A DNA stretch of 64,000 bases from Chloroflexota bacterium (GCA_043812795.1 JBDRLU010000033.1:27763-91762), one strand, 5' to 3'; positions 35,957-56,032 are shown, counted from the first letter of the stretch. Numbers and translations: made by a program. The notes: generated from the sequence alone by a model not told the origin.

Positions 35957-37879
35957 TTAGCCAACCCCGGCAATTAGCCTCTCTACTTTAGTAACGTCCA
36001 GGGCGTTAATGTTACCATCCTGGTTAGCATCAGCCCCCGGCGTCGGGTCATCCAGATGGACGATAATCCGCTCTGTTTTGGTGATGTCCGTAGCGTCAAT
36101 CCGGCCATCGCCGTTGGCGTCACCGAGTAGGAGCCCTGATGAAGTAGTGAAACTTTTGTCTTCTCCGTAGCCGGTCATGTTGTCACCTGTTGCCTTAGCC
36201 CGGAAATGGTAGGTCGTGTTGTTAGACAGTCCGGTCAAGTTGGCGCTGAATAATCCGACATCGTTTATGGGCATTGGTGCCGTCTCATCGGTGTAATTTC
36301 CGGAGTTTAGCCCCCAATCAAAGGAGACCATGATACTGGCCGCCGCACCAAAGCTGTCAAGCGTACCGTTGAGTACGGCTGAACTACCGTTAACGTTGGT
36401 AGCATTATCGGTGGTAACGGTTGGCGCTACCGTTGCCTCTCCACCCAGCGAACCGTCACCGGAGACCCGCTGGGCATAAATGTCATTATCGGTACCGCTG
36501 CGAAAATCTGACCAAATGATGACAGCGCCGCTTGAGATGACAGAGCAAATCTGCGGTACGCTCTGGTGGTTACCGGCGGTGGAGATGGCCGTCCCGTTGT
36601 CCGTCCACTGGGTGAGACCGGCTGCGTTAACTCTTTGGGCAAAGATATCATAATAGCCGCTACGAGCATCTGACCATGTAATTATCGCCCCGCCTGCGCC
36701 ATCGGGACAAAGCTGGGAACCGGTCTGCCGGTTGGTGAGTGAACTGATGGCCGTCCCATTGTCCGTCCATTGTGCCACACCAGCGGCGTTCACTCGCTGG
36801 GCATAAATGTCTTCGAGGGTGCCGTTCCGGTCGTCGTCCCAAGAGATAATAGCCCCACCCGAGCCGTCAGGGCAGAGCTGAGGGGCAGCCTGATAATCGC
36901 CGGTATTGCAAACGGCGGTGCCGTTATCCGTCCACTGCGGCGTACCCGCCGTGCTTACCCGCTGCGCATAAATATCAAAGTTGGTTTCCTGGCGATTGTC
37001 TACCCAAGTGATAATAGCTCCTCCGGAACCGTCGGAGCATATTTGGAGATAAGCTTGATTATTGCCAGCCCGGCAAACGGGCGTGCCATTATCGGTCCAC
37101 TGCGGCACACCAGTGGCATTTACTCTCTGGGTGTAAACATCGGTGCTGAGAACAGGGCGCATATCCTCCCATGCGATAACCGCTCCGCCGGAACCATCGG
37201 AACAAATTACGGGCCTTGACTGTCCTTCACTGGCGCTGGATACGGCTATACCATCAGCCGTCCATTGTGGCGCACCTGCTGAGTTTACTCTCTGGGCATA
37301 AATATCCGTGTTGGCACCATTACGCGAGTCGTCCCAGGCAATGATAGCCCCTCCGGAACCGTCAGGGCACAATTGCGGGTATTCCTGCTTGTTCGTCGCC
37401 GTGCAGACGGCGGTGCCGTTATCGGTCCACTGTGGTATGCCGGCAGCATTGAGCCTCTGGGCATAAATATCGTAGTTGCCGTTGCGCAAGTCCTGCCAGA
37501 CGATGATAGCCCCACCGGAACTGTCAGGACAAAGTTGAGGGTAATCCTGTTTGTTAGTGGCCGTGCAGATGGCGGTGCCATTATTCGCCCACAGGGGCAC
37601 GCCGCCGGCGCTTATTCTCTGTGCATAAATATCATAGTCGACGCGGCGGTCGTCCCGCCAGACGATGATAGCTCCACCGGCGCCGTCCGAGCAGATTTGG
37701 GCTGGTTCCTGGGTGCCATTAGTAGTGCACACAGGCACATTGACCGTCGGGTCACCGGGCCAGGCTCGGAGACTGTCAGGATATACGTCTCCTTCCACAG
37801 CTACTTCCGGTAGCGCCGCTCCCCACAGTGGCAGGGTAAGTATTACCACCATGACTGCATGCCACAGTTTAATCTTCAT
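35957..37879 (-). CDS. secreted repeat protein: about 8 tandem 54-55-aa repeats + FN3-like domain + C-terminal type-I dockerin
   Basis: A signal peptide is present. The repeats have the form DIYAQRVNAAGxPQWTDNGTAVC....QxxPQLCPDGSGGAIIxW.D.R. The C-terminus, GDANGDGRIDATDIT...DANQDGNINALDVT, is a duplicated Ca-binding dockerin motif. Confidence 0.75.
   Translation of the reverse strand: MKIKLWHAVMVVILTLPLWGAALPEVAVEGDVYPDSLRAWPGDPTVNVPVCTTNGTQEPAQICSDGAGGAIIVWRDDRRVDYDIYAQRISAGGVPLWANNGTAICTATNKQDYPQLCPDSSGGAIIVWQDLRNGNYDIYAQRLNAAGIPQWTDNGTAVCTATNKQEYPQLCPDGSGGAIIAWDDSRNGANTDIYAQRVNSAGAPQWTADGIAVSSASEGQSRPVICSDGSGGAVIAWEDMRPVLSTDVYTQRVNATGVPQWTDNGTPVCRAGNNQAYLQICSDGSGGAIITWVDNRQETNFDIYAQRVSTAGTPQWTDNGTAVCNTGDYQAAPQLCPDGSGGAIISWDDDRNGTLEDIYAQRVNAAGVAQWTDNGTAISSLTNRQTGSQLCPDGAGGAIITWSDARSGYYDIFAQRVNAAGLTQWTDNGTAISTAGNHQSVPQICSVISSGAVIIWSDFRSGTDNDIYAQRVSGDGSLGGEATVAPTVTTDNATNVNGSSAVLNGTLDSFGAAASIMVSFDWGLNSGNYTDETAPMPINDVGLFSANLTGLSNNTTYHFRAKATGDNMTGYGEDKSFTTSSGLLLGDANGDGRIDATDITKTERIIVHLDDPTPGADANQDGNINALDVTKVERLIAGVG
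36452..37750. repeat. coding tandem repeats (period 162-165 nt, about 8 copies) within the dockerin protein gene
   Basis: Repeat boundaries were counted from the translated protein (aa 44-476). The copies are diverged, at roughly 50-70% aa identity by eye. Confidence 0.75.
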
Positions 37880-40251: not shown

Positions 40252-40788
40252 ATGATTGGGCAATTCTTTTTTGCAGAACCTTGGGAACAGAAAGAAGCCT
40301 CGGTAGAATGGGGCGAATACCGGATTGAGGTCGTCCGAATATCCGAACCGGGGCCGACGGTTGAAGTGAGTAATCTTTTTCACCGATTGTACGCTCAGTC
40401 ACAGCATGGTGAAGAAACGAGTCCCTATTTTGCCGGATACTTGAGATTTAGGGCGAAGGCCTTTCCACGCTCCGGCGGCAGGCAGGATAATGATAGTATT
40501 GCTGGCAGTGCCGAATACCGGTACTGGCCTTCCCTGAATCTGGGTTACATCGAGTACGTCCAGGTCGATGCCGGTACGCGTCGAAAAGGCCTTGGCGTCA
40601 AACTGGTCAACTTTATCGTTGATTACATGCGACGTAAGGGTAGCTGGCGCGTTTATGCCTTTGCCGTCAATGCCATGGGGTGCCGGTTACTGGCGCGGGC
40701 GGGATTTACGGATGAGACACCTGAAGACCCGGCCAGCCCGCGTCGGAAATGGTTCTTCTGTAACACGAGACGTCGGCCGGTGACTTAA
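40252..40788 (+). CDS. GNAT-family N-acetyltransferase (divergent)
   Basis: YVQVDAGTRRKGLGVKLVNFIVDYMRRKG matches the acetyl-CoA-binding motif A (Q/RxxGxG/A). The N-terminal half is unrecognised. Confidence 0.6.
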   Translation: MIGQFFFAEPWEQKEASVEWGEYRIEVVRISEPGPTVEVSNLFHRLYAQSQHGEETSPYFAGYLRFRAKAFPRSGGRQDNDSIAGSAEYRYWPSLNLGYIEYVQVDAGTRRKGLGVKLVNFIVDYMRRKGSWRVYAFAVNAMGCRLLARAGFTDETPEDPASPRRKWFFCNTRRRPVT

Positions 40789-41708
40789 CGCTGTCCGAAG
40801 CTATCACCCGGTTTCAGAGATACGGCCTGAGCATACTGGGCGGCCGGTATTTTAGCCGAAGCTTCCGGTTGTACCCGTTTGGCCAGAATGGAACCGCTCT
40901 GGCCAGCTATCACAATGCCTTTCTCATTGCATTCCACAATCTGTCCCGGGGCTTTGTCGGAAGGCTGTTGTATCAACTCAGAATCGAAGATTTTGAGCTT
41001 CTTGCCAGCGAAGCAGGTAATGGCTCCCGGCTGGGGATTGGTGCCCCGAATCAGGTTGTAAACTTTCGTGGCTGGCTGCGACCAGTCGATGACGGAGTCC
41101 TTCTCGGTGCACAGGCCCTCATAGGTGGCCTGCGATTCGTCCTGGGGAATGCGTGGAGCGTGGCCCTGTTTGACCAGTTCGACGGCTTCCACCAGTGTCT
41201 GCACGCCCAGAGGGAAAAGTTTATCGAAATAAAGGGAACCGACCGTATCGTCGGGTAAGATGTCAACCTCTTTCTGCAGCAGGATAGGCCCGGTATCGAT
41301 ACCGCGGTCGGGCCAGAAGATGGTGAGACCGGTCCCGGTCTCACCGTTGATGATAGGCCAGTTGATGGCACTGCCTCCCCGGTGTTTGGGCAATAAAGAG
41401 GGGTGGTATTGGATTGTTTCCAGCCGCGGGCACTTCAATATTTTTTCCGGAACGATATCGGTAACGAAAGCCATGATGCCCAGGTCGGCTTTAAGTCCGG
41501 CAAACTGGGTGTAAACGGCGGGGTCACGCATTCGCGTTGGCTGGAAAACGGGGATGCCTTGTTTCCCGGCCGATTCGACGAGCGGGTCTAACCTCCCTCC
41601 CGGTACCGAAGGCGGCGCGTACACGGCGATGACCTCCTCACGTTTTTCCAGTAACGATTGGAGAATTTTCTCACCGAAAGCCGCCTGTCCGATTAAGACG
41701 ATGCGCAT
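40785..41708 (-). CDS. formyltransferase, Fmt/ArnA/FDH-N superfamily (stand-alone, 307 aa)
   Basis: MRIVLIGQAAFGEKIL..., YHPSLLPKHRGGSAINWPIINGETGTGLTIFWPDRGIDTGPILLQ and the C-terminal beta-barrel domain are present. By eye it is closer to the 10-formyl-THF dehydrogenase N-domain/ArnA branch (GQxxFG, SAINW) than to canonical Fmt (GTPxFA, APIQR). Confidence 0.8.
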   Translation of the reverse strand: MRIVLIGQAAFGEKILQSLLEKREEVIAVYAPPSVPGGRLDPLVESAGKQGIPVFQPTRMRDPAVYTQFAGLKADLGIMAFVTDIVPEKILKCPRLETIQYHPSLLPKHRGGSAINWPIINGETGTGLTIFWPDRGIDTGPILLQKEVDILPDDTVGSLYFDKLFPLGVQTLVEAVELVKQGHAPRIPQDESQATYEGLCTEKDSVIDWSQPATKVYNLIRGTNPQPGAITCFAGKKLKIFDSELIQQPSDKAPGQIVECNEKGIVIAGQSGSILAKRVQPEASAKIPAAQYAQAVSLKPGDSFGQR

Positions 41709-41740
41709 TGCTCAACTCCTCGTTAATGTCCAAGATTGTG

Positions 41741-43384
41741 TCAGGCAGTAGCCGACATGGTCGAAGTCAGGTGGCCGTATTCCATGGTCTGGTCGATAAT
41801 GACGTTGATGCAGGCGGGTAGTCCTGACGAGAATGACCTCTCGAGGGCGGGCCGAATTTGCTCCGGTCTTTCCACGAACTCACCGTGGCCACCGAGGGCT
41901 TCGACCATTTTATCGTAGCGGGCTTTCCCGAGCGCCCGGCCTAAGGCGACCGACCCCTGTGGTACCGGTGACCAGGCTCGGTTATTGCCGATGACGGAAA
42001 CGACGGGGATGTTATGACGGGCCATGGTATCGAATTCCATGGCGTTCAGGCCGAAGGCGCCGTCGCCGTTGACAATGAGCACCTGCTTATCCGGCTCGGC
42101 CAGTTTGGCGGCCATGGCAAAGCCGGTGCCTACGCCCAGACACCCCAGCTTACCCGGGTCGAGCCAGTGGCCGGGGTAGTTTATTTTCAGGATTTGAGCG
42201 GCGTAGGAAACGATATCGCCGCCGTCACCGACCACGATGGCATCGCGGTCGAGAAAGTCGCGTACTTCGCGGAGCAGCCTGACCGGATGGATGGGCACGG
42301 CATCCGAGTGCATGAATGGCTCCAGTTCTTTTGTCCTGGCGGCTTCAACGGCCCGGAGTTTTTCCAGCCACTCAGGATGCTTGGTTACTTTGCCGGCGGG
42401 AAGTTCGGCCAAGAGTTGCTTGAGCACTTCTTTGGTATCGCCAAGGATACCGACATCGATAGGCCGGTTGTGGCCGATTTCGGTCTGGTCGATATCAATC
42501 TGGATAACCTTGACTCCTTTATTGAATAGTGGCGGCGCCCCGTAATTCAAACGGAAGTCAATTACTGTACCGATGAGGACAATAACGTCGGCCTGGCCGA
42601 GGGCGAGACGCCGTGAATAAACGGAGAACTGCGGATGGTCGGCCGGGATACAGCCACGCCCCATGCCATTGAGAAAGACAGGGGCGCCGATGGTTTCAAT
42701 GAACTTTTGTAGCTCCTCGCTGGCGTGAGACCAGTATACGGTGCTTCCCGCCATTACCGCTGGTCGCTGGGCTTTACTGAGTAATTCAGCGGCTGCCTTC
42801 ACCAGCTCGGGATTGCCCGGTACCCTAGCGGTCGTCCGTGATTTAGCCGGTTCGGGGAAGACAACTTCGGATTCCTCGACGGTAGCATTGAAGATATCCA
42901 TCGGGCATTCCAGTACGACCGGGCCGGGTTTGCCGGCCAGAGCATACTTATAAGCCATACTGATATACTCGGGAATCCGCTTCGTTTCATAGACAGTGCG
43001 GGCCCATTTGGTAATCGGTTTCATGAACTCCAGGTGGTCCATTTCCTGGAGGGGGCTTTTTTCAAACGAACCGACCGGACTACGTCCGGCCAGGACGAGC
43101 ATGGGGCTGCCGGCTTGGTAGGCATTGGCCACGGCCGTGACTACATCGGTGACGCCCGGCCCGGCGGTGACTACTGCCACGCCCATCTGCCCGGTAACCC
43201 GCGACCACCCCTCGGCGGCGTGCCCGGCGGCTTGTTCGTGACGGACATCGATTATCTTCATCCCCTCACTATCAGCACCGTGGAAAATAGCGGCGATATG
43301 CCCGCCCCAAAGGCCGAACAAATATCTTACTCCTTCTGCTTTCAAAGCCTTCGCCGCCAGTGTCCCGCCATCAACTTTAGCCAT
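41741..43384 (-). CDS. TPP-dependent enzyme of the oxalyl-CoA decarboxylase / 2-hydroxyacyl-CoA lyase subfamily
   Basis: 547 aa. It has the three-domain ALS-like layout, LQEMDH (compare YEEMDQ of Oxc), FLNGMGRGCIPADHPQ (compare Oxc MGMAKGLLPDNHPQ and HACL MGKGVVPDNHP) and the TPP motif GDGAFGLNAMEFDTMARHNIPVVSVIGNN. Confidence 0.8.
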   Translation of the reverse strand: MAKVDGGTLAAKALKAEGVRYLFGLWGGHIAAIFHGADSEGMKIIDVRHEQAAGHAAEGWSRVTGQMGVAVVTAGPGVTDVVTAVANAYQAGSPMLVLAGRSPVGSFEKSPLQEMDHLEFMKPITKWARTVYETKRIPEYISMAYKYALAGKPGPVVLECPMDIFNATVEESEVVFPEPAKSRTTARVPGNPELVKAAAELLSKAQRPAVMAGSTVYWSHASEELQKFIETIGAPVFLNGMGRGCIPADHPQFSVYSRRLALGQADVIVLIGTVIDFRLNYGAPPLFNKGVKVIQIDIDQTEIGHNRPIDVGILGDTKEVLKQLLAELPAGKVTKHPEWLEKLRAVEAARTKELEPFMHSDAVPIHPVRLLREVRDFLDRDAIVVGDGGDIVSYAAQILKINYPGHWLDPGKLGCLGVGTGFAMAAKLAEPDKQVLIVNGDGAFGLNAMEFDTMARHNIPVVSVIGNNRAWSPVPQGSVALGRALGKARYDKMVEALGGHGEFVERPEQIRPALERSFSSGLPACINVIIDQTMEYGHLTSTMSATA

Positions 43385-43533: not shown

Positions 43534-44835
43534 TTATCCGCCGGTTGGTAGTGGCTGTTGTTTCGGAGCAGCGGGCATGGTGAACATGAGGGCGGCACTC
43601 ACCAGGCCGGCGATGGCTAGAACAAGCCAGGTGGGATCGTACCTGCCACGGGTATCGAAGACCCACCCGACCAGTGGCGGCGTAATCACTGACATGACCG
43701 TAGTGAAAATTTGCTGCAAGCCGAAGATACTGCCAAAATGCCGGGCACCGAAATATTCTCTGATGAGAGTTGCCCTCAGGGGCGTGGCGGCACCGAAACC
43801 GATGCCATACAGGACGATGAATGGAACGGTCATCCAGGAAGAACCAGGCTTGATACCAGCGAAGAAGAATAAGGCGGCAGCCATCAGCATGGTAGAAATG
43901 CCCGTCAGGTAGCGCTTCTGGAAAATATCAACCAGCCAGCCCCACATGAACCGGGCGGGGACGCTCACTAAAAGGAATAACATCGCTACCATTGCCGCCG
44001 CTGCCCGGCTCAAACCTACCATCGGACTGGCCAGTTAAGGCACTACGTGTAATGTCACCGCACCGATGCTGGCCCAATGGAACATCTCGGCGAATCCCAG
44101 TTGCCAGAAGGCCCTGGTCCGGGAGGCTTCCCGGACGCCGGGATTATATTCGCTGAAGCGGACTCTTGGTGAGTCCTTTGAACTATCCGGTTTAACTCCA
44201 TCGGGGAGCAGGCCGTAGTCTTCGGGCCTATCTCGGTAAACGAAAGCGAGTGGTATACCGACGATGGCGACCATGGCGGCGACGAGGAGTAGTACCGTGC
44301 GCCAGCCGTAGGCATCAACCAGAAATACCAGCACCGGGACGCCGTAGCCGCCGAGGCCGATACCCATGGCCACAATGCCATTGACCTTGCCGATGCTCTT
44401 CTTGAACCATCGGGCAATGGCGGCGGCTGGTGCCATGTGCGTCGCGAGCGAGCTGCCGGCAGCGGCGACCAGGAAACTGGCGTATAACATGGGCAGATTT
44501 CTCGTCTGGCTGAGCAGAGCGTAGCCGAGAGCTTCGACCGCCACACCGATGAGTATTAACCACTTCGCCGGGAAACGGTCAACTGCCCGGCCGAAAAACG
44601 GGCTTAAGACGCCGGTCTCGATGCTGCGTAAGGACATCGCCAGTGAAATCTGGGCATAGCTCCAGCCGAATGAGGCGGCAATCGGGGTTATCAGTGTCGT
44701 CAGTCCCTTGGATACGACACCAACGACGAAAATATTTTCCACCACATAAGCGGCGACGATATACCAACCGTAAAAGACCGTTTTCGTCTTTTTGATGAGA
44801 GCTGTGGCGGAGAAGCTATTTACTTTCACGGACAA
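43534..44835 (-). pseudogene. OFA-type MFS transporter interrupted by an in-frame TAA (44035-44037)
   Basis: ORFs 44035-44835 and 43534-44022 are in the same frame. The read-through is ...VTLHVVP*LASPMVGLSRAAA, where related MFS proteins typically have Tyr (VPY). It is a paralog of 10805-12103. Confidence 0.75.
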
Positions 44836-44924: not shown

Positions 44925-44953
44925 ATAATATGGTGTGGTATGCCCGTTGTCAA
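44925..44953 (-). promoter_or_regulatory. sigma70-type promoter (TTGACA-17-TATTAT) upstream of the OFA-MFS gene
   Basis: On the minus strand: TTGACA (44953-44948), a 17-nt spacer, then TATTAT (44930-44925). Confidence 0.45.
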
Positions 44954-45798: not shown

Positions 45799-47679
45799 AT
45801 GGTGATGTCAAAAAGTACGGTGGGTGGTTATGCCGGTAAAATTCTCCGGGTTGACCTGACCAGAGAACGTATCAGCGAAGAAACTCTGGACGAAGCGACT
45901 TTGAGGAAATGGGTCGGTGGGGTCGGGTTCGGGGCGAAGTACCTTTATGAAGAAGTCTCCCCGCGGGTCAAATGGGACAGCCCGGGCAACCGGCTCATCG
46001 TTGCCAGCGGCCCGCTGGGCGGGACAAGGGTAGGTGGCTCGGGGACGATTTCCATCAGTGCTAAAGGCTGTCTGACCAACGGGGCGACCTCGACCCAGGC
46101 CAATGGTTTCATGGGTGCTTACATGAAATTCGCCGGCTATGATGCGGTCATCTTCAAAGGCAAAGCCAAACGGTGGGTCTATCTTTATATGCACGATGGT
46201 ACCGCCGAACTCAGGGATGCCCAGCACCTGGTGGGTAAAAATACCTGGGAGACCGAAGACATGATAAAGGCGGAGTTAGGCTATAACGAGCGAGGGATGA
46301 GCGTTTTCGGTATCGGGCCAGCGGGCGAGAACCTGGTGAAATTTGCCGGTATTTTCGGCGATAAAGACCATGCCGCCGGTCACAACGGCATCGGGGCGGT
46401 GATGGGTGCCAAAAAGCTGAAGGCTTTTTGTGCCGCCCGGGGCCGGGGCAGTGTTCCGGTCAAGGACTCGGGGCAACTGTTGCCGGCGGTTGAAGCTATC
46501 TGGAAAGGACTCGAGAGCGACCCAACGACAAAGGCGGTACTCGACTGGGGTACCGGCGGGACTTACGAAGCCGGGGAACAAAGAGTGACCGCGGGAACGC
46601 TGCCGGTCAAGAACTACCTGACTACTCTTTACCCGGAGGCACGGGTGATGACGTGCCAGTACACCCGGGAACACTGGAATGCCAAACCGAACCCGTGCTG
46701 GGCCTGCCGGTCACACCATTGCCACATGATTACTATTACGGATGGGCCTTACCGGGGGCTGACCGTGGAAGAGCCGGAGTACGAGATGTTTGCTGCCTGG
46801 GGGTCCCTGGTGGGTAATACCGACCCGGCGGAAGCCCTTGTGCTGTCCAATCTGCTCACTTTGCTGGGGCTGGAAGGCAACGAAGCCGGCTTTCTGATGT
46901 CGATGTTGATTGAGCTTTATGAGAAGGGTGTACTTACGAAGAAAGATACCGACGGGCTCGAGTTGACGTGGGGCAACACGGCGGCGATGCGGACGCTGCT
47001 GGAGCGGATAGCCTACCGTGAGGGTGCTTTTGCCAAGCTGCTGGGTGAAGGCACAGTGCGGGCGGCCAAGGCGCTGGGGAAAGAGGCGCAGGACTGCGGA
47101 ATTTATGCCCTGAAAGGCCATTCTCCGCGGGGACATGACCACCGGGGGATGTGGCGGGAAATGTTCGATACGGTTACTTCCGACATCGGCACTTATGAAT
47201 CAGGCTACTGGGGACCGCCCGACCCCGATGTGCCCGGACTGCGGCACCGCTTTGCTCCCGACGAAGTGTCCACACATATCGCCAAGTCGAAAGGGAGACG
47301 TCAGTTCGAGGATGCCCTGGGCACTTGCGTTTTCTGCACGCGGGTGCCTCTCCAGCTGGTAGTGAATGCCTTTAATGCCGTCACCGGTTGGGACTTCACG
47401 CCGAAGGAGGCTCAGGACGTCGGCTTCAGAGCGGCTAATGCGCTGCGTGCGTTCAATATTCGGCACGGTGTTTCGGTAGAGCTGGAACGTCCGTCTCCGC
47501 GCTGGTCGTCGACGCCGGTGGATGGCCCGGCTAAAGGTATCAGTGTCGAGCCGCACTGGGACAGTATGCTGGACAATTACTATTCATTGATGGGCTGGGA
47601 CAGAAAGACAGGAAAACCCTTCCCGGAGACTTTGAAGAGCCTCGGGCTGGAAAATATTGCCGCCGACCTTTGGAAGTAA
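45799..47679 (+). CDS. aldehyde:ferredoxin oxidoreductase family protein (second paralog)
   Basis: 626 aa. GGYAGKILRVDLT at the N-terminus and the overall AOR_N/AOR domain pattern are present. Confidence 0.9.
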   Translation: MVMSKSTVGGYAGKILRVDLTRERISEETLDEATLRKWVGGVGFGAKYLYEEVSPRVKWDSPGNRLIVASGPLGGTRVGGSGTISISAKGCLTNGATSTQANGFMGAYMKFAGYDAVIFKGKAKRWVYLYMHDGTAELRDAQHLVGKNTWETEDMIKAELGYNERGMSVFGIGPAGENLVKFAGIFGDKDHAAGHNGIGAVMGAKKLKAFCAARGRGSVPVKDSGQLLPAVEAIWKGLESDPTTKAVLDWGTGGTYEAGEQRVTAGTLPVKNYLTTLYPEARVMTCQYTREHWNAKPNPCWACRSHHCHMITITDGPYRGLTVEEPEYEMFAAWGSLVGNTDPAEALVLSNLLTLLGLEGNEAGFLMSMLIELYEKGVLTKKDTDGLELTWGNTAAMRTLLERIAYREGAFAKLLGEGTVRAAKALGKEAQDCGIYALKGHSPRGHDHRGMWREMFDTVTSDIGTYESGYWGPPDPDVPGLRHRFAPDEVSTHIAKSKGRRQFEDALGTCVFCTRVPLQLVVNAFNAVTGWDFTPKEAQDVGFRAANALRAFNIRHGVSVELERPSPRWSSTPVDGPAKGISVEPHWDSMLDNYYSLMGWDRKTGKPFPETLKSLGLENIAADLWK

Positions 47680-47714: not shown

Positions 47715-48023
47715 TTGAGTACGGGCAAAGTCAGGGTAGAAATCCGCCCCTGGTTGAGCGATGGGCTTAGTCCTAACGGGTCGGGGGCCGTCGTTCTGGA
47801 AGAGCAAATAGAAAAAGGGGCTACGGTCAGTGGCTTGCTTACCCGATTGGCCGCCGAACACAAGGCCCTGGGTAAAGTGTTGTTCGAGCCGGACGGTCGC
47901 CAGCTTAACGGTGAGGTGTGCATCGTAGTCGATGGCCGGCTGTTACAGTTGCCCGGGGAACTGGACAAGGGGCTGAAGGACGGGACGACTATTACGCTGC
48001 TGCCGGTAATCGACGGCGGGTAA
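47715..48023 (+). CDS. MoaD/ThiS-family ubiquitin-like beta-grasp protein with C-terminal Gly-Gly
   Basis: 102 aa ending ...TITLLPVIDGG followed by stop. It lies immediately downstream of the AOR paralog. Confidence 0.7.
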   Translation: MSTGKVRVEIRPWLSDGLSPNGSGAVVLEEQIEKGATVSGLLTRLAAEHKALGKVLFEPDGRQLNGEVCIVVDGRLLQLPGELDKGLKDGTTITLLPVIDGG

Positions 48024-48227: not shown

Positions 48228-49439
48228 TTAGTAAATTATCTTCTCTTCGACCAGCCGGGCTATCTCTTCCTTCGATAGCCCCAGCAACTGGCCGAAGACG
48301 TAATCGTTCTGCTCGCCGAGGAGAGGGGCGTAGCGCGGCGGCTTGCGGCCGAGGCCGCTGGCCTGCCAGGGCAGGTCGTACAGGGTCAGCCCACCGGCGA
48401 TGGGATGGTCCACATTTAAGAAAATGCCGCGTTCTTGAAAATGGGGGTCGAAGAAGACGCCTTCGATATTGAGCACCGGCGCGGCGGCCACGCCTGCTTT
48501 CTGCAATAGTTCAGCGGCCTCGTAGTCCGTGTGGGTGAGTGTCCATTCCGTGACGTGCTTATCGAGTTCATCCAGATTCCCAAGGCGGTGGGATAAGTCG
48601 GAGAATTTCGGGTCGCCGGTCCACGTGGGATTACCGATGGCTGTACAGAAAGCCTGCCATTCGTCTTCGGTCTTGACGGCGATGGAGACCCACTTGTCAT
48701 CGCCTTTACAGCGATAGTTGCCGTGCGGGGCCATGTGGGGCCGTAAATTCCCCTGGCAGCCCGCCACCCGCCCGTTCATGAAATAGTCCATCATGGCCTC
48801 ACCGATAAGCGATGTCGTCACTTCGCTCTGCGAGAGGTCGATATATTGCCCCTGGCCGGTCCGTTCGCGATATCTGAGGGCGGCCATGACGGTAAAGGCG
48901 CCATAAAGGGTCGCCACCACATCGGCATAGGCGTGCTTGAAGCCTAATGGGCGGTCGTCCCGGTAGCCGAGCATACTATCGATACCGGCGAGGGCACTTA
49001 ATAATGGCGCGTAGGCCAGCATTTCGGATAGCGGCCCGTACTGCCCGGCCGGAGACAGCGAGAGCATGATAATATCCGGCTTGATTTTGACCAGAGAGTC
49101 GTAGTCGAGGCCGTGGCGTTTCAAGGTGCCCACGCCGAAGTTTTCATTGACGATATCGCTTTTCCGGATGAGTTCTAAAATAAGCTCGTGTCCTCTGGGC
49201 GTCGTCCAGTCCAGCGTGATGCTCATTTTACTGCGGTTATTGTTGTGGAAGGCAGGATTGACTTCTAGGGTATCGCCCAGTTCAAACACTCTACCGAGGC
49301 GGAGGCCGTCCAGCCTCTTTTTCGATTCAATCTTGATGACTTCGGCACCATGGTCGGCGAGAATATGGCCTAAAACGGTGCCCGCCCACACCCAGCCGAA
49401 ATCGACGACACGGTAGCCTTCGAAAGGTAGCTTCGCCAT
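48228..49439 (-). CDS. family III CoA-transferase (CaiB/BaiF/Frc family), pair 1 subunit B
   Basis: 403 aa. YRVVDFGWVWAGTVLGHILADHGAEVIKIES matches the N-terminal family III signature. Its start overlaps the upstream stop (TAATG). Confidence 0.85.
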   Translation of the reverse strand: MAKLPFEGYRVVDFGWVWAGTVLGHILADHGAEVIKIESKKRLDGLRLGRVFELGDTLEVNPAFHNNNRSKMSITLDWTTPRGHELILELIRKSDIVNENFGVGTLKRHGLDYDSLVKIKPDIIMLSLSPAGQYGPLSEMLAYAPLLSALAGIDSMLGYRDDRPLGFKHAYADVVATLYGAFTVMAALRYRERTGQGQYIDLSQSEVTTSLIGEAMMDYFMNGRVAGCQGNLRPHMAPHGNYRCKGDDKWVSIAVKTEDEWQAFCTAIGNPTWTGDPKFSDLSHRLGNLDELDKHVTEWTLTHTDYEAAELLQKAGVAAAPVLNIEGVFFDPHFQERGIFLNVDHPIAGGLTLYDLPWQASGLGRKPPRYAPLLGEQNDYVFGQLLGLSKEEIARLVEEKIIY

Positions 49440-50653
49440 TATATCGTCCCCTCCTTCCGGAGTGCGTCCAGGTCGGCTTTGGAGTAGCCGAGTTTTTCAC
49501 AATATATCTCTTCGTTGTGCTCGCCGAGGCGCGGCGCCGCCCGTTGGATAAGAAAAGGTGTTTTCGAAAGCTGGTAGCCGGCACCGGGGTATTTCAGCTT
49601 ACCGGCCGCGGGATGGTCAATTTCGACGAAATAGCCCCGCTCTTTCAGGTGCTCGTCGTTGGCGACGTCCTCGACCGTCCTTATCGGCGCGGCGGGCACG
49701 CCGTTGCTCTGGCAAAGCTGAAAAATTTCTTCCTTGGTGTGCTGCATCAGCCAGGGCATCAGGTAGGCATCGGCCTGCGTGGCATATTCGTCGCTGGTCT
49801 TGATGCGGTCCTTGAAGATAGGGTCGTCGGCCCAGGCCGGATTGCCCATGATGCCGAGAAATTTTTGCCACTGGCGGTTCTGCGGCGTATCGATGCAGAC
49901 ATAGCCGTCCTTGCAGGGATAGACGGCATCGGTATAGCCCTGGTGGATGACGCGGAAGCCGGTGCGGGTACGGATGCCCTCTTCATCGAGGAAGGCCTGC
50001 GCTCCGTGCCCGATATGAAAAGTCGCCCAGCACTGGGCTTCGGCGAGGTCGATGTGGCTGCCTTCGCCCGTCCGGTCGCGGTTGAAGAGAGAAATCATGG
50101 TGACGAGGGCGCCCTGGAGTCCGGCCTGATAATGGGCCTGGCACATGGGCGGGGCTAACGGCTCGCGCTCGGGATAGCCGCTGGCGGCGCTGATGCCCCC
50201 TAAAGCACAGGTATTGATATCGTAGGCTTTCCAGTCTTTATACGGGCCGGTCAGGCCGAAAGGCGAGAGGGAGAGCATGATGAGCTTCGGGTTGATTTCT
50301 TTTACCGACTCGAAATCAAGCTTGAGTTCTTTTACCAGCGGGTAGGGGTAATTGTGGACAAAGATATCGGCGTCTTCGAGCAGTTTGAGAAAGATTTCAC
50401 GGCCGGCCGGCGGCTGCGGGGCGAGGGTGACGCCGAATTTATTGATATTGAGGTAGAGGAACAGGCCGCTTTTTTCGATATCCGGGGTGTCCCCGGGGAA
50501 GGGGCCGTGGCGGCGGGCTTCTTCACCGGTGTGCGGCGGCTCGATTTTGACGACCTCCGCCCCCAAGTCCGCCAGCAGTTTGGTACAAAATGGGGCCGAG
50601 ATAAAAGACCCCCACTCCACCACCTTCAAGTCAGCTAACGCTTGCTCAGCCAA
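49439..50653 (-). CDS. family III CoA-transferase, pair 1 subunit A
   Basis: 404 aa. LKVVEWGSFISAPFCTKLLADLGAEVVKIEPP matches the same family signature. Confidence 0.85.
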   Translation of the reverse strand: MAEQALADLKVVEWGSFISAPFCTKLLADLGAEVVKIEPPHTGEEARRHGPFPGDTPDIEKSGLFLYLNINKFGVTLAPQPPAGREIFLKLLEDADIFVHNYPYPLVKELKLDFESVKEINPKLIMLSLSPFGLTGPYKDWKAYDINTCALGGISAASGYPEREPLAPPMCQAHYQAGLQGALVTMISLFNRDRTGEGSHIDLAEAQCWATFHIGHGAQAFLDEEGIRTRTGFRVIHQGYTDAVYPCKDGYVCIDTPQNRQWQKFLGIMGNPAWADDPIFKDRIKTSDEYATQADAYLMPWLMQHTKEEIFQLCQSNGVPAAPIRTVEDVANDEHLKERGYFVEIDHPAAGKLKYPGAGYQLSKTPFLIQRAAPRLGEHNEEIYCEKLGYSKADLDALRKEGTI

Positions 50654-50941
50654 ATCCGGTCTGCCTCCTCTAAGTTAACCGAGGACATTATATACGGTAA
50701 GGCTGGTTCGACTCAATGGGAAGGGTTTTGGTCAGCAGTATATATCTGGACTTTAGCATTATTATGGAGTCTGAATGCCGATGATGCGGCGAAGACACAA
50801 AAAGTTTAGCCTGTTTGACAACCTTAACAAGATGTAAGATTACAAAGTAGGTTGAAAGCCTCTATGATAGTACTAATCTTACACAAAGAAGTTAACTCGA
50901 TGAAGGCCGCCACAAGACCGACTAAAACACTTAGATATATA

Positions 50942-51724
50942 CTAGAGCAAGTTGGACTGTTTCCACCTTCTATCAAAGTTCTCGTTTAATGCTTCGTAAA
51001 TGTTCTTACTACTCGCTTCATCCAACATGATAGCAAATGATTCCTTCGCGCCCAAATCCTTTATACTGTGACCGAGAAGTACTACAGAACTCGGAGAAAT
51101 AATGTATCTATCATGCAAATCAGTGTTAGGATAATTCCCGAAATCGATATTAGGATTTTCTGATTTGAAATCCTTAAGTTCCCTGAGCAACTTAGTTCTT
51201 GCATTCGTGTTTGTAATGTTTTCGATCCTAGTCAAGAATTTGATAGGTCTTCCTTTCACCTCTTTTACAATATCAAGTGTTCTCTCGCTACAATAGGGGT
51301 CTACAATCTTTATCTCACCATCAAGCGTGTTTAAGATGCTATTTGCTAAAATCCTTTTACTTGAATATCTCTGCTCAGGTTCGAAATAGAGTATCTCTAA
51401 CTCGCCCTCTCCTCTGAGAGACTTCAACTGTTCTTTGCCAGGTTTCATTATCTCGTAATAAACCCCGCTACTTTGCAGGTTAGTATAGATTCTGTCACCA
51501 GCTCTATTGAGAGATTGTGTTATGCTCGTTACTTTGATGTTTACCTCTTGTACATCCCGGAGGATAGAAGCTATTTGTTCTGCAGTCAATCTCTTTATTA
51601 ACAATTTGTCTTTAGCAACCCAAAGAATCCATAATGCCCGCTCGAGGATTGTATTACAATCCTCGAGCCGAGGGATGTCGCTAATGTCAGCGGTTAAGAA
51701 TCTCTCCTGGATGGTTAAGGCCAT
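50942..51724 (-). CDS. hypothetical protein: N-terminal winged-helix-like module + C-terminal degenerate PLD/MIT_C-like domain (DPY...LHDRYII...LLGHS)
   Basis: This 260-aa ORF is the last gene of an AT-rich cassette. The C-terminal half reads IKIVDPYCSERTLDIV...FLTRIEN...DLHDRYIISPSSVVLLGHSIKDLG. It resembles a single HxK-like PLD motif with K replaced by R, as in the MITD1 C-terminal PLD-like fold. The assignment is by eye. Confidence 0.5.
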   Translation of the reverse strand: MALTIQERFLTADISDIPRLEDCNTILERALWILWVAKDKLLIKRLTAEQIASILRDVQEVNIKVTSITQSLNRAGDRIYTNLQSSGVYYEIMKPGKEQLKSLRGEGELEILYFEPEQRYSSKRILANSILNTLDGEIKIVDPYCSERTLDIVKEVKGRPIKFLTRIENITNTNARTKLLRELKDFKSENPNIDFGNYPNTDLHDRYIISPSSVVLLGHSIKDLGAKESFAIMLDEASSKNIYEALNENFDRRWKQSNLL

Positions 51725-51730
51725 ATTATT

Positions 51731-52141
51731 TTACTTCTCCACGAATCCGCCTTCTACAAGTTGCTCACCCGTGTTAGTCAGAACCAATGCCTTCGCTTTA
51801 TCCTTTTTCTCTTTATCTTCCATCATGTAACCCTTTTTAATATTGTAAAACACCGCTAGATGTATGTTTTTTGGGAAGGGTTCTTTAGCTGATCTGAAGC
51901 CATTTTCCAAGTCGCTAACATTAAAAGGTGATACCGATTCATGCTTCTCAAGATAGTACCCTATCACCAACGTTTTATGGATTCCGCTTTTAGGTTTCTT
52001 AGACAACAGGAATTCTTTTAGGGACATCTTCTTTGGTGAACTACTCGGCTCAGTTTGAGATTTCGATTCTAATTTACTAATTCTTTTTTCATGGTCTTCC
52101 ATTTGCTTTTTTAATGCGTTGAGCGTATCTTCAACTGACAT
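51731..52141 (-). CDS. hypothetical protein: N-terminal coiled-coil + winged-helix-like module
   Basis: This 136-aa ORF overlaps the upstream gene by 11 nt and lies 6 nt from the downstream gene. Its pattern is TLVIGYYLEKH...FNVSDLENGFRSA...PKNIHLAVFYNIKKGYM...LTNTGEQLVE. Confidence 0.5.
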   Translation of the reverse strand: MSVEDTLNALKKQMEDHEKRISKLESKSQTEPSSSPKKMSLKEFLLSKKPKSGIHKTLVIGYYLEKHESVSPFNVSDLENGFRSAKEPFPKNIHLAVFYNIKKGYMMEDKEKKDKAKALVLTNTGEQLVEGGFVEK

Positions 52142-52571
52142 CCTTCTTGCCCTCCTTGCTCACCTTTTTGAGCATATCTTTGAGTGATTTCTCAACAACA
52201 TTCAAGGCTACCACATGATAACTTAACTTCCCTTTTGTAGTCGTCTTGATCTTATTATCATCTCGAAGGGTTTTTAGCCAAGGCAGCAGAGAACCTTTAG
52301 GAACACCTAATTCATCCATCAATTCACTATTACTCGCATCATCGGTAGGAGTTAATTCAGCTTCTTTAGCATATAACTTGCCAATCAAATAAAGTATGAT
52401 GCATTCCGTACCTGTCAGTTTATCCTTGGGTAGAACGTCAATCTTACCGTCTTTGGTGATTCGAATTAGTTGCTTCGCAAGGTCAAAATTCTTTTCAAGT
52501 GCACTTCCATAATCAACAGTCATCTCTTCAATTATTTTTCGTTTCAAGGTACTAAGAGTTTGATTGGCCAT
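52131..52571 (-). CDS. hypothetical protein with winged-helix-like module
   Basis: This 146-aa ORF is the first gene of the cassette, and GGAAGGTGA precedes the ATG. Its pattern is ECIILYLIGKLY...SNSELMDELGVPKGSLLPWLKTLRDDNKI...KGKLSYHV. Confidence 0.5.
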   Translation of the reverse strand: MANQTLSTLKRKIIEEMTVDYGSALEKNFDLAKQLIRITKDGKIDVLPKDKLTGTECIILYLIGKLYAKEAELTPTDDASNSELMDELGVPKGSLLPWLKTLRDDNKIKTTTKGKLSYHVVALNVVEKSLKDMLKKVSKEGKKDVS

Positions 52572-52608
52572 ATATCACCTTCCAAATATAATAATAATCT
52601 ATATACAA

Positions 52609-52638
52609 GCATAATCCTAATTTAGTATAATGTCAAGG
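52609..52638 (-). promoter_or_regulatory. possible promoter of the three-gene cassette
   Basis: On the minus strand: TTGACA (52638-52633), an 18-nt spacer, then TATGCT (52614-52609). It sits in a very AT-rich 280-nt upstream region. Confidence 0.3.
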
Positions 52639-52850
52639 GCTTTCTGTCTATGTTCGTATTAGTATTTATAATCCAATAATTCTTCGAACCATGCATAGAT
52701 TATTTTTATACTATCTTATTTATGTATGGCAAAAATCAAGGTGTGTGAAAAGCTCTGGCTTCACTAACATCCACTGCTGTGGAGAAATAGAATTTGCTGA
52801 AGTAGCGGAACGGCTGCCGGTATTCTAGCTCACGTACGTCTTACCCGGGG

Positions 52851-53582
52851 TTATTTATAAATCGAAGACATAAAAGTAATATAGTAAATTTCGCCGGACT
52901 TGTAGGTGCCGACAGCGCCATAGGTATTCAGGTCGTTGATAAGCACGTTTTCGTAATCATAAACATTTACTGTCCAGGTTATCAGGGCGGCATTGGCCAC
53001 CTGCTCGACCGTGCCGTAGCGTATCGCCCAGAAAACGTTTTGATAGACGCCACCCAGGCTGGAGTAATGGTATTTCCCCAGGGCCGCCATTTCCTTGCTG
53101 TTCTGGAGGGCCAGCCCGTAAAGGTTTACTCCCCACTGGAGTTCAGGAACACCGGCTTTTCTCCGTTCGGCGTTGATGATGGCGAAGATAGTCTGGTCGA
53201 TTTCATCTTCTTTTAGTGCCGTTGTCCCCGAAATCATGGCATCATATTTACTTTGCAGGTCGGCGAATTTATCATTCAGTTCGCTATATCTGGTATTCAG
53301 GTCGTCGTAGTTAGCCTGGGCAGTCTGGATGGCCGCCGTTTGCGTTTCATATTGTTTTTGCAGGTCTTCATAGCGGGTATTCAAGGCCTGATATTGGGCG
53401 TCGCCAAGATTGGCGGCGTTGAGTTGCGACTGCAGGGCGGCGACCTGTCCTTTGACGGTCTCCAGTTCGGCCTTCACGGCATCGTACTCTTGCTGGGATA
53501 CCCCTGATTTGCAGCCAAGCATCGTCGCCAGAATAACGATTGACAGAAGCGAAAAGAGACTGATTTTTATTTTCCTGGCCAT
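52851..53582 (-). CDS. lipoprotein with coiled-coil region and C-terminal CAP/SCP (YkwD-like) domain
   Basis: The signal peptide plus lipobox is LSIVILATMLGC. A Q/A/L-rich heptad region follows, then INAERRKAGVPELQW...NSKEMAALGKYHYS, typical of CAP domains. Confidence 0.7.
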   Translation of the reverse strand: MARKIKISLFSLLSIVILATMLGCKSGVSQQEYDAVKAELETVKGQVAALQSQLNAANLGDAQYQALNTRYEDLQKQYETQTAAIQTAQANYDDLNTRYSELNDKFADLQSKYDAMISGTTALKEDEIDQTIFAIINAERRKAGVPELQWGVNLYGLALQNSKEMAALGKYHYSSLGGVYQNVFWAIRYGTVEQVANAALITWTVNVYDYENVLINDLNTYGAVGTYKSGEIYYITFMSSIYK

Positions 53583-53620
53583 ATCACACCTTCCACGGCG
53601 ATATTGTTTTTAAAGGGCGA

Positions 53621-54823: not shown

Positions 54824-56032
54824 TTATTCGAAGACGCCGTCGTTGAAGAGCGCGAGGAACTCGTCCGGCGGCATGCCGAGCAACTCGCGGCAAACATACT
54901 CGGTGTGTTCGCCGAGGCAGGCGGCCGCTCTTTCTCCGACGGCCGGCGTCAGAGGCAGGCGGAACAACTCGCCGAGGTGCAGGTAATTACCCATTTCGGC
55001 GTGTTTAAGCTCCCAGAAAGTGTTGCGGGCCAGCAACTGCCGGTCCTGGACGAGGTCGCGCGGGCTATTGACGATACCCGCGGCCACGCCATGGCCTTCC
55101 AGCATTTCCATCATGGCCCCGGCGGTGAAATTGATTGTCCACTCGCCGACCAGCCTGTCCAACTCGTCCTCGTTCTTTTTTCTGGCGGCAAAGGAGGCAA
55201 AGGCTTTTCTTTTTGTCCAGGGGAGGTTGCCGGTAGCCTCGCCGAAGTTACGCCAGTCCTCTTCCGTTATTACGGAGATAGCACACCACCTATCGTCGCC
55301 CTGGCACGGGTACACGCCGTTCGGTGCCGCATCGCCGCAACGGTTGCCCTGTCTCGTTGTCTCCCGACTATTCAGGGCATAGTCCATAATCGAAGAGGCG
55401 AGGAACTGGGTGCTGGCTTCCAGTTGCGAAACATCGATGTTCTGACCGTTACCGGTCTTTTTCTTATGGATTAAGGCGGCGAGTAAGCCGCAGGCGCTCA
55501 AGGCCCCGCTGATAAAATCAGGGTAACCGCCGAAAGGCTGCACCGGCTCTCGGTCGGGCCAGCCGGTCAGGGAGGTAAAACCGGCCATGCCGACCAGATT
55601 GGTGCCCGTGCCCGAAACTCCGTTCAACGGTCCGGTCTGCCCCATCTGGCTGATACTTAGCGTGATGATATCCGGTTTTAGCTGCTTGACGTGCTCGTAG
55701 TCGAGGCCGTACCGGGCCATGATGCCGGGCGTAAAGTTATCGGTAATGACATCCCCCCATTCGACCAGCCGCCGGACGACGCGGTCAGCTTTGGGATGGC
55801 TCAGGTTAAGGGCGAGGCCGTATTTATTGGCGGCAAAAAAAGCATAATAGCCGCTGCGGTCGATGCCGGGCACATTGTCTTTGTACGGCCCGGATACCCT
55901 GAGGAAATCGGGGTGAGTGGCCGACTCGACGTGAATTACCGTGGCACCGTAGTCGGCCAGGAACTTCATCATCAGCGGCCCGGCCACGCTCCAGGTAAAA
56001 TCGACTATTTTGATACCTTCAAGGGCTTTCAT
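54824..56032 (-). CDS. family III CoA-transferase, pair 2 subunit B
   Basis: 402 aa. IKIVDFTWSVAGPLMMKFLADYGATVIHVES is most similar to the 48228-49439 product. Confidence 0.85.
   Translation of the reverse strand: MKALEGIKIVDFTWSVAGPLMMKFLADYGATVIHVESATHPDFLRVSGPYKDNVPGIDRSGYYAFFAANKYGLALNLSHPKADRVVRRLVEWGDVITDNFTPGIMARYGLDYEHVKQLKPDIITLSISQMGQTGPLNGVSGTGTNLVGMAGFTSLTGWPDREPVQPFGGYPDFISGALSACGLLAALIHKKKTGNGQNIDVSQLEASTQFLASSIMDYALNSRETTRQGNRCGDAAPNGVYPCQGDDRWCAISVITEEDWRNFGEATGNLPWTKRKAFASFAARKKNEDELDRLVGEWTINFTAGAMMEMLEGHGVAAGIVNSPRDLVQDRQLLARNTFWELKHAEMGNYLHLGELFRLPLTPAVGERAAACLGEHTEYVCRELLGMPPDEFLALFNDGVFE

Follow-up and report, generated by a model that had tools for sequence, protein, structure and literature searches.

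A 64,000-nucleotide stretch of DNA from a Chloroflexota bacterium (GCA_043812795.1 JBDRLU010000033.1:27763-91762), referred to here as the window, carries on its minus strand a gene for a thiamine diphosphate (ThDP)-dependent enzyme and, directly 3′ of it on the same strand, a gene for a stand-alone formyltransferase (FT). Our analysis indicates that the two genes form a conserved module that probably couples formyl-CoA to the folate one-carbon (C1) pool, with FT acting as a formyl-CoA:tetrahydrofolate (THF) formyltransferase. An original prediction made for this DNA had read the pair along these lines, and its overall reading is partly supported: the family assignments, the chemical analogy and the conserved adjacency hold, while the claims that the step was undescribed and that it bypasses formate-THF ligase (FTHFS) do not, nor do parts of the genomic context. 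The module is laid out as follows, with genes, spacer and domains read from open reading frames (ORFs), Pfam matches and the sequence of the junction.

41741..43384, minus strand: ThDP-dependent enzyme gene, 547 aa (ORF; Pfam TPP_enzyme_N/M/C)
41709..41740, minus strand: intergenic spacer, 32 nt, containing a ribosome-binding site, GAGGAG, 7 nt ahead of the FT start codon (ATG)
40785..41708, minus strand: formyltransferase gene (FT), 307 aa (ORF; Pfam Formyl_trans_N and Formyl_trans_C)

The coordinates, sizes and strand of both ORFs and all of the motifs first quoted for them were confirmed, and the gap, given earlier as 33 nt, is a spacer of 32 nt. The short spacer with its ribosome-binding site implies that the two genes are probably co-transcribed. 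No terminator-like site was seen in a scan of the spacer, and an Rfam scan of the region from 38 to 48.5 kb returned no riboswitch or other RNA family. The G+C content of the window is ~52-55%.

The formyltransferase resembles the N-terminal domain of 10-formyl-THF dehydrogenase

Public records name FT a methionyl-tRNA formyltransferase (Fmt), and the fmt equivalog TIGR00460 is its best NCBIfam model, but the score of 184.7 bits misses the cutoff of 201.5. The solved structures closest to FT in a sequence search of the PDB are instead the N-terminal domains of 10-formyl-THF dehydrogenase (FDH-N; 230 bits, 39-40% identity), with weaker matches to Fmt (≤169 bits), ArnA (121 bits) and, distantly, HypX (50 bits, E 1.6e-12, ~20% identity). 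The same division appears among the relatives of FT drawn from an exhaustive search of 1.84 billion representatives, where stand-alone proteins 36-50% identical to FT score 135-176 bits on the fmt model and those 33-35% identical score 240-356 bits and include fusions of Fmt with the deformylase Def (def-fmt). Relatives 410-920 aa long carry Aldedh domains and represent true FDHs or fragments of them, and two also match PP-binding. In a neighbor-joining tree of 67 sequences, whose internal branches are poorly resolved, FT and the FDH-N clade split from verified Fmts in 100% of 200 bootstraps; the FDH N-domains nest within stand-alone FT-like proteins, and the def-fused proteins fall inside the Fmt clade.

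Residue-level features follow this division. The loop-1 insertion of Fmt (PD+PxGRG++L..PPVK), which serves initiator tRNA recognition in E. coli Fmt, is missing from all FT and FDH sequences, leaving a loop that is 5 residues shorter (16-19 residues in FT/FDH-N vs 23 in 17 of 18 Fmts). The catalytic residues His102/Ser104/Asp138 are invariant in the FT family, and the motifs surrounding them are FDH-like. An AlphaFold2 model of FT (pLDDT 80.7) was compared with the PDB using Foldseek, which put FDH-N first. The net charge of the C-terminal domain, used as a proxy for tRNA binding, overlaps between the FT and Fmt groups and is uninformative.

FT consists of Formyl_trans_N and Formyl_trans_C only, without the PP-binding carrier or aldehyde dehydrogenase (ALDH) domain of FDH/ALDH1L proper. 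Among the top 150 representatives, fusions are of the FDH type (PP-binding plus ALDH) only, apart from the def fusions in the Fmt clade, and none joins FT to a ThDP, CoA-transferase or enoyl-CoA hydratase domain. Canonical fmt and def genes were looked for in the window and in 1.9 Mb of fetched loci, without a match. The fmt score, PDB ranking, tree, loop and motifs thus agree with the proposal that FT is closest to FDH-N, and they point to a member of an FDH-N-like formyltransferase clade that, despite its public label, appears from its sequence not to be a canonical Fmt.

The ThDP-dependent enzyme groups with formyl-CoA-forming enzymes

The PDB matches of the ThDP enzyme are led by the 2-hydroxyacyl-CoA lyases/synthases (HACL/S) of Chloroflexi and Proteobacteria (346-318 bits) and actinobacterial 2-hydroxyacyl-CoA lyase (HACL; 289 bits), followed by oxalyl-CoA decarboxylase (OXC; ~267 bits) and acetolactate synthase (ALS; ~200 bits or less). 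HACL/S (TbHACL/S 8vzd, RuHACL 6xn8, AcHACL 7pt1) and OXC (2c31, 2q27) are thereby among its closest solved relatives. The best NCBIfam model is PRK05858, 'acetolactate synthase' in label only, at 564.5 bits against a cutoff of 587. Cutoffs are also missed on the actinobacterial HACL model NF058623 (407.2 vs 600 bits), on the OXC models TIGR03254 (317 vs 739.4) and PRK09259 (342 vs 557), and on the biosynthetic ALS model TIGR00118 (345.6 vs 538). An ORF and Pfam scan found no ALS small-subunit gene adjacent to the ThDP gene. The enzyme may also resemble M. tuberculosis IlvG (Rv1820).

In alignment, the catalytic Glu50 and active-site Gln113 of TbHACL/S are conserved in the ThDP enzyme as E50 and Q113 (residues per PMC11271303), and the segment MG(K/R)G..P.DHP is conserved between it and its HACL/S and OXC relatives. 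Opposite AARS of TbHACL/S the alignment places the segment YSRR(258-259), which may correspond to the CoA-contact region of AcHACL (R273/S274, PMC8760513). The PDB and NCBIfam scores, together with E50 and Q113, bear out the earlier placement of the enzyme, as judged by homology, in the HACL/OXC branch rather than with ALS. Because the enzyme reaches no curated cutoff, it would represent a distinct, uncharacterized subfamily of this formyl-CoA-forming branch.

The gene pair is conserved as a unit

To follow the pair beyond the window, 80 metagenome loci with homologues of the ThDP enzyme were fetched, nine of which hold orthologues at least 73% identical. FT lies directly downstream of the ThDP gene in all eight of the orthologue loci that have enough downstream DNA, and the adjacency first noted in the window is thus conserved in relatives. 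Gene calls in the fetched loci follow a longest-ORF heuristic, and this sample, like that of FT loci described below, comprises the 80 best-scoring matches and is biased towards Dehalococcoidia. From locus to locus the pair has unrelated flanks, which include an acyl-CoA synthetase with enoyl-CoA hydratases, glycerol genes, a corrinoid methyltransferase pair or, in the window, the gene for a transporter of the major facilitator superfamily (MFS). No conserved third gene was found around the ThDP-FT pairs, the flanks being wholly variable, and the pair therefore moves as a module of two genes. Adjacency this consistent, together with the neighbor enrichment described below, goes far beyond what chance would give.

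Two further arrangements were observed among these loci. In L092 (3725-5659) and L086, the ThDP-FT pair divergently adjoins a URO-D-like methyltransferase and a B12-binding corrinoid protein, a methyl-transfer system that would likewise connect with the folate C1 pool. Within a sister clade of the ThDP enzyme (55-59% identity; L097, L098, L102, L104, L107, L108, L114, L117), the gene is never accompanied by FT and is directly preceded by a pair of family III CoA-transferase genes 36-43% identical to those in the window, which suggests a module of a heteromeric CoA-transferase and a ThDP lyase for some acid.

The formyltransferase keeps company with formyl-CoA enzymes

The FT family is present in at least 593 species-level genomes from Chloroflexota, Nitrospirota, Actinomycetes, Pseudomonadota, Rokubacteria and others. 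Over the 80 best loci, which represent 80 species genomes, the recurrent immediate neighbors of FT were CoA_transf_3 proteins (10/131), ThDP enzymes (6/131) and FTHFS (5/131), and no others. When genes at most two positions from FT were compared with the rest of the same loci, a test that uses crude gene calls and loci that are not independent, all three were enriched: CoA-transferases at 12/211 vs 1/538 (p = 2e-6), ThDP enzymes at 10/211 vs 2/538 (p = 1e-4), and FTHFS at 5/211 vs 0/538 (p = 0.0017). The gene orders seen were ThDP-FT, ThDP-FT-CoA-transferase, GntR-ThDP-Frc-FT-FTHFS (Frc being formyl-CoA transferase), CoA-transferase-FT-ThDP, and CoA-transferase-FT with a set of genes resembling benzoyl-CoA reductase or 2-hydroxyacyl-CoA dehydratase.

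These partners are diverse in sequence. The ThDP enzymes found with FT belong to at least five lineages with mutual identities of 26-74%, and HACL or OXC is the nearest characterized relative of each. The transferase adjacent to FT in locus L054 is a true Frc (709.7 vs 504.2 bits, TIGR03253), and FT and FTHFS are co-operonic in six loci, five from metagenome-assembled genomes (MAGs) and one from an isolate plasmid. An association of FT with several formyl-CoA-forming ThDP lineages, true Frc and FTHFS is what a link between formyl-CoA and THF predicts. Formyl-CoA is the one thing common to all FT partners, and FT is therefore read as a reversible formyl-CoA:THF formyltransferase. A gene for an acyl-carrier-protein-like product was searched for beside FT as a stand-in for the FDH carrier domain and none was found, which makes a free thiol cofactor the likely acceptor.

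Other features of the FT loci were more restricted. A 77-aa stand-alone ORF resembling the AsnC/Lrp ligand-binding domain lies ~40 nt 3′ of FT in L007 (6586-6819), L009, L014 and L029; it is the sole conserved small ORF by FT and is confined to one Dehalococcoidaceae group. In two Chloroflexota MAGs (L006 9000-13192 and L015 8980-13191), a CoA-transferase-FT pair precedes genes for two HGD-D-family subunits and two BcrAD/BadFG ATPases, a set that is class I benzoyl-CoA-reductase-like or 2-hydroxyacyl-CoA-dehydratase-like, and a divergent ThDP enzyme of 656-665 aa lies on the opposite strand.

An isolate plasmid carries a member of the FT family in an oxc-frc operon

Plasmid pLA6_002 (CP031587.1) of the cultured Paracoccaceae bacterium La 6 carries the operon ydfH(GntR)-oxc-frc_5-fmt_2-fhs_2. 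Its oxc encodes a genuine OXC (PRK09259, 950 vs 557 bits; TIGR03254, 937 vs 739.4 bits), its frc a genuine Frc (691.4 vs 504.2 bits), and its 'fmt_2' (QEW23307.1) a member of the FT family that is 47% identical to the FT of the window and scores 132 bits on the fmt model. The Prokka naming convention behind the '_2' suffix, together with the plasmid location, implies that La 6 has a separate fmt. For the family as a whole, this contradicts FT being the sole canonical Fmt, a condition that the original prediction had named as refuting.

The oxc-frc-FT-fhs genes of this plasmid (L166, CP031587.1 65036-83950) lie inside an apparent island for C1/oxalate assimilation, with serine-cycle-type genes alongside. 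The island includes ppc, a ketopantoate-reductase-like gene, glyA2, a TctABC-type transporter and sucCD-like genes, the last scoring 516 vs 604 bits on the malate-CoA ligase model and 580 vs 370 bits on the succinate-CoA ligase model. One of its solute-binding genes carries the annotation 'argininosuccinate lyase'.

Proposed reaction and its direction

In the mechanism that we propose, the ThDP enzyme would be a CoA-thioester-dependent lyase, decarboxylase or synthase with formyl-CoA as product or substrate, as its homology and context suggest. FT would then catalyze the reaction formyl-CoA + THF <-> 10-formyl-THF + CoA, with its His/Ser/Asp site moving the formyl group between N10 of THF and the pantetheine thiol of free CoA. 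The module would in this way link the folate one-carbon pool to formyl-CoA arising when 2-hydroxyacyl-CoA or oxalyl-CoA is cleaved. Although the original prediction took this step to be undescribed, the same chemistry has been shown for LctF, a stand-alone enzyme that makes formyl-CoA from 10-formyl-THF and CoA in vitro (PMC11730586). It has also been proposed, on the basis of crystal structures and with direct experiment then pending, for the N-domain of HypX, which would formylate CoA from 10-formyl-THF, and FDH-N itself passes the formyl group of 10-formyl-THF to a 4′-phosphopantetheine thiol (PMC6802093).

Two roles can be envisaged, one for each direction. As a drain, FT would keep the formyl-CoA released by cleavage as 10-formyl-THF, a role in keeping with loci that have an acyl-CoA synthetase, and not a formyl-CoA-consuming transferase, nearby. 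From the energetics of thioesters and formyl-folates, transfer from CoA to THF is expected to be downhill; the LctF and HypX precedents run from THF to CoA, with product removal. As a supply, FTHFS would convert formate and ATP to 10-formyl-THF and FT would pass the formyl group on to CoA, which would start or replenish an Frc/ThDP cycle that is catalytic only in labile formyl-CoA, or would feed C1 condensation in the synthase direction. Supply or priming fits best for the operons with both Frc and FTHFS (ThDP-Frc-FT-FTHFS), because the formyl-CoA cycle needs a first thioester, and the direction of the LctF reaction agrees. A priming role has been discussed for YfdE in oxalate catabolism (PMC3720670). 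The earlier suggestion that FT would bypass formate-THF ligase is contradicted in the six loci where the two are co-operonic.

A more far-reaching version of the supply role, which we regard as unlikely, is that FT and formate-THF ligase activate formate or a Wood-Ljungdahl C1 unit to formyl-CoA and that HACL/S-type enzymes then run as synthases in vivo. Aldehydes or ketones would be formylated to 2-hydroxyacyl-CoA, in a natural counterpart of the engineered formyl-CoA elongation pathways, and the same reading would offer a candidate formyl donor for ThDP-dependent ketone activation in anaerobes.

Opposing evidence and alternative functions

Several observations weigh against a role for the module in formyl-CoA:THF exchange. 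Approximately 80% of FT loci have no ThDP, CoA-transferase or FTHFS gene within 8 kb, and the family may therefore have a broader or different housekeeping role. On the ThDP side, FT was found in 0/71 loci of homologues at 48-61% identity. The ThDP enzyme itself departs from HACL/S in that it reaches no curated NCBIfam cutoff, its positions 27-29 read G-G-H where HACL/S have a G-I-P loop, and it lacks the C-terminal lid contacts R-K-x-Q-x3-W (PMC11271303); the alignment with TbHACL/S stops at residue 532, and the tail TMEYGHLTSTMSATA is without lid residues. In HACL/S, which have been shown to condense formyl-CoA, these lid residues contact acyl-CoA (PMC11271303). The CoA-independent benzaldehyde lyase also ties with OXC as a relative, at ~267 bits. 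The CoA dependence of the ThDP enzyme is therefore putative, being suggested by homology and by the paired CoA-transferase genes 5′ of its 55-59%-identity homologues, whereas the missing lid residues and the fairly close benzaldehyde lyase speak against it. For FT, the Foldseek TM scores are alike for FDH-N, Fmt, ArnA and HypX (0.61-0.66) and do not discriminate among them.

Given the many orphan loci, FT might be a stand-alone, PurU-like 10-formyl-THF hydrolase that frees formate and THF, with the ThDP adjacency reflecting C1 housekeeping. Orphan genes in unrelated contexts are what a housekeeping function would give, and FDH-N was classically termed a hydrolase domain (PMC6802093). What FDH-N actually does is pass a formyl group to a pantetheine thiol (PMC6802093), however, and a hydrolase beside FTHFS, as in the six operons, would make an ATP-wasting futile cycle. 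Hydrolysis would also leave the enrichment of Frc, other CoA-transferases and formyl-CoA-forming ThDP enzymes unexplained. We consider this function unlikely.

Similarly improbable is an N-formyltransferase acting on another acceptor, such as an amine metabolite, an amino sugar or a peptide, in the manner of ArnA and the sugar formyltransferases. FT, ArnA-N and the sugar N-formyltransferases have the two-domain fold in common, and the flanks of the pair are variable, both of which would accommodate such an acceptor. Against this, amine-forming, sugar-nucleotide and non-ribosomal peptide synthetase (NRPS) genes were not recurrent beside FT in the neighbor census, the oxc-frc-FT-fhs operon of La 6 offers no evident amine acceptor, and ArnA and the sugar enzymes are far more distant from FT (≤121 bits) than is FDH-N.

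That FT is a divergent Fmt, either the organism's Fmt or a specialized second copy, would agree with the public name and with fmt as the best NCBIfam model. We judge it very unlikely in light of the score below the cutoff, the missing loop insertion and the 100% bootstrap split. Deformylase (def) is not among the families that recur beside FT in the best 80 loci, and the def-fused proteins belong to the Fmt clade. The pattern of identities also argues against it, since homologues of FT from MAGs of Proteobacteria and Actinomycetes are 53-55% identical to it and the solved proteobacterial Fmts only 30-33%, and the La 6 member is plasmid-borne and labeled fmt_2.

Finally, it is highly improbable that the adjacency reflects inheritance only, as a syntenic block of one Dehalococcoidia lineage with no functional coupling: direct ThDP-FT pairs are confined to ThDP orthologues at least 73% identical, in loci that are not phylogenetically independent, but the flanks of the pair differ completely between loci, and FT is joined to several ThDP lineages, with gene order and phylum varying and one case on the alphaproteobacterial isolate plasmid.

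Acetolactate synthase, Fmt and simple hydrolase were rejected as primary readings on the scores, the tree, the loop, the FTHFS operons and the partner enrichment.

Genomic context of the pair in the window

The genes surrounding the pair include a transporter, an aldehyde:ferredoxin oxidoreductase (AOR) and two pairs of CoA-transferases.

43534..44835, minus strand: MFS transporter gene (monocarboxylate/OFA-like), first of a putative operon (ORFs 44035-44835 and 43534-44022, MFS_1)
44925..44953, minus strand: sigma-70-like match TTGACA-17-TATTAT (11/12, consensus scan), ~90 nt upstream of the MFS start
45799..47679, plus strand: AOR gene (AFOR_N and AFOR_C), divergently transcribed
47715-48023, plus strand: ThiS/MoaD-family small protein ending GG, 35 nt downstream of the AOR gene
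48228-49439 and 49439-50653, minus strand: first family III CoA-transferase pair (CoA_transf_3)
54824-56032 and 56042-57277, minus strand: second family III CoA-transferase pair (Pfam), followed by MaoC-like dehydratase and thiolase-like genes

The end of the MFS gene lies 149 nt upstream of the ThDP gene, at the distance of ~150 nt first given for a transporter of the oxalate/formate antiporter (OFA) type, but it is interrupted and bears little resemblance to OFA. Among NCBIfam models it matches the L-lactate MFS transporter best (95.6 bits) and OFA less well (63.6 bits), each far short of its cutoff. At 44035-44037, an in-frame TAA (…HVVP*LASPMVGLS…) splits the gene, and both halves together have the size of a normal protein with 12 transmembrane segments; the stop may mark a pseudogene or a recent nonsense mutation, or it may be an error of sequencing or assembly. 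The match at 44925..44953 is a candidate promoter for an MFS-ThDP-FT operon.

The AOR gene is present as first described, and its product could possibly handle an aldehyde co-product or substrate of the ThDP enzyme. The ThiS/MoaD-like protein encoded behind it may be tied to the sulfur-carrier system of the tungsten/molybdenum cofactor. In L123 (8414-10282), an AOR 75% identical to that of the window lies ~0.8 kb from a 55%-identical ThDP homologue, and in L161, L164 and L022 less similar AOR homologues lie close to ThDP or FT genes, a weak recurring association that fits aldehyde handling.

Four CoA_transf_3 genes are present within the 15 kb in which four Frc-like CoA-transferases had been described, but they are not Frc equivalogs; the two tested, those of the first pair, score about 198 bits (196.5 and 198.5), far below the TIGR03253 cutoff of 504.2. 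Neither FTHFS nor a true Frc is adjacent to the pair in the window, and the window has no true OXC.

Two further regions of the window were distinctive. A 640-aa secreted protein encoded at 35957-37879 on the minus strand contains ~11 tandem copies of a ~45-residue repeat (…GGAII.W.D.R….DIYAQRV…G…W…NGT…) and, at its C-terminus, two dockerin-like Ca-binding repeats (DANGDGRIDATD…DANQDGNINALD), giving it a cell-surface or propeller-like look; several long spurious ORFs overlap it on the opposite strand. Between the CoA-transferase pairs, a low-G+C island at 50900-53600 (0.44-0.46 vs 0.52-0.58) may be horizontally acquired. It holds three co-directional genes (260, 136 and 146 aa) and a CAP-domain lipoprotein with a coiled-coil N-terminus. 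The 260-aa protein, the sole one of the three scanned, has no Pfam match.

Novelty and significance

Full-text searches covering the literature outside subscription journals brought up no paper that ties an FDH-N-like formyltransferase to HACL, OXC or Frc. The chemistry of formyl transfer between THF and CoA is known; what would be new is a widespread family and its metabolic coupling. If the proposed function is correct, formyl-CoA would be no dead end for hydrolysis or for transfer to oxalate, and would, in many bacteria, be in direct exchange with the C1 pool of folate. The textbook oxalate route through Oxc, Frc, formate and FTHFS would be revised, and the priming of a cycle that is catalytic only in labile formyl-CoA would be explained.

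The proposal also bears on two gaps in the literature. What becomes of formyl-CoA in the actinobacterial HACL pathway has not been assigned to any known enzyme (PMC7176365), a gap in bacterial 2-hydroxyacyl-CoA lyase pathways that FT would address. In sulfate reducers, the C1 unit that formylates ketones in ThDP-dependent activation 'remains elusive', and a Wood-Ljungdahl intermediate has been suspected (PMC7888143); formyl-CoA supplied by FT would be a testable candidate for this donor. A natural folate-linked source of formyl-CoA would further be available to elongation pathways in synthetic biology, and a systematic mis-annotation of such genes as 'methionyl-tRNA formyltransferase' and 'acetolactate synthase' would be corrected.

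Comparison with known systems

Of the known formyltransferases, the FDH N-domain is the one that FT resembles most in detail, with a shared Formyl_trans_N and Formyl_trans_C architecture, the motifs YHPSLLP and TIFW.D.G.DTG..LLQK, and the short loop. Unlike FDH, FT is stand-alone, bacterial and encoded beside formyl-CoA enzymes, and its proposed acceptor is free CoA rather than a tethered arm, with no oxidation to CO2 implied. Fmt has the same two Pfam domains and uses 10-formyl-THF as donor.

The N-domain of HypX (HoxX; 6j0p, 6j1f) has an FDH-N-like fold and binds THF, and free CoA could plausibly replace the 4′-phosphopantetheine arm (PMC6802093). HypX differs from FT in its fusion to a decarbonylase resembling enoyl-CoA hydratase, which provides CO for [NiFe]-hydrogenase, and it has features of its own in that its CoA is a bound prosthetic group and its catalytic Ser is replaced by Asp. 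A functional counterpart, compared by description, is LctF from lactacystin biosynthesis in Streptomyces lactacystinicus, which is stand-alone and Fmt-like and catalyzes the same reaction as that proposed for FT. In contrast to FT, LctF belongs to a polyketide synthase (PKS)/NRPS secondary-metabolite cluster and feeds an acyltransferase domain, and only the THF-to-CoA direction has been shown (PMC11730586).

The textbook route of oxalate catabolism takes formyl-CoA to formate via Frc and then to FTHFS, a described pathway without a formyltransferase. The Frc/Oxc oxalate cycle needs a source of its first formyl-CoA, and homologues of FT sit inside oxc-frc and ThDP-Frc operons.

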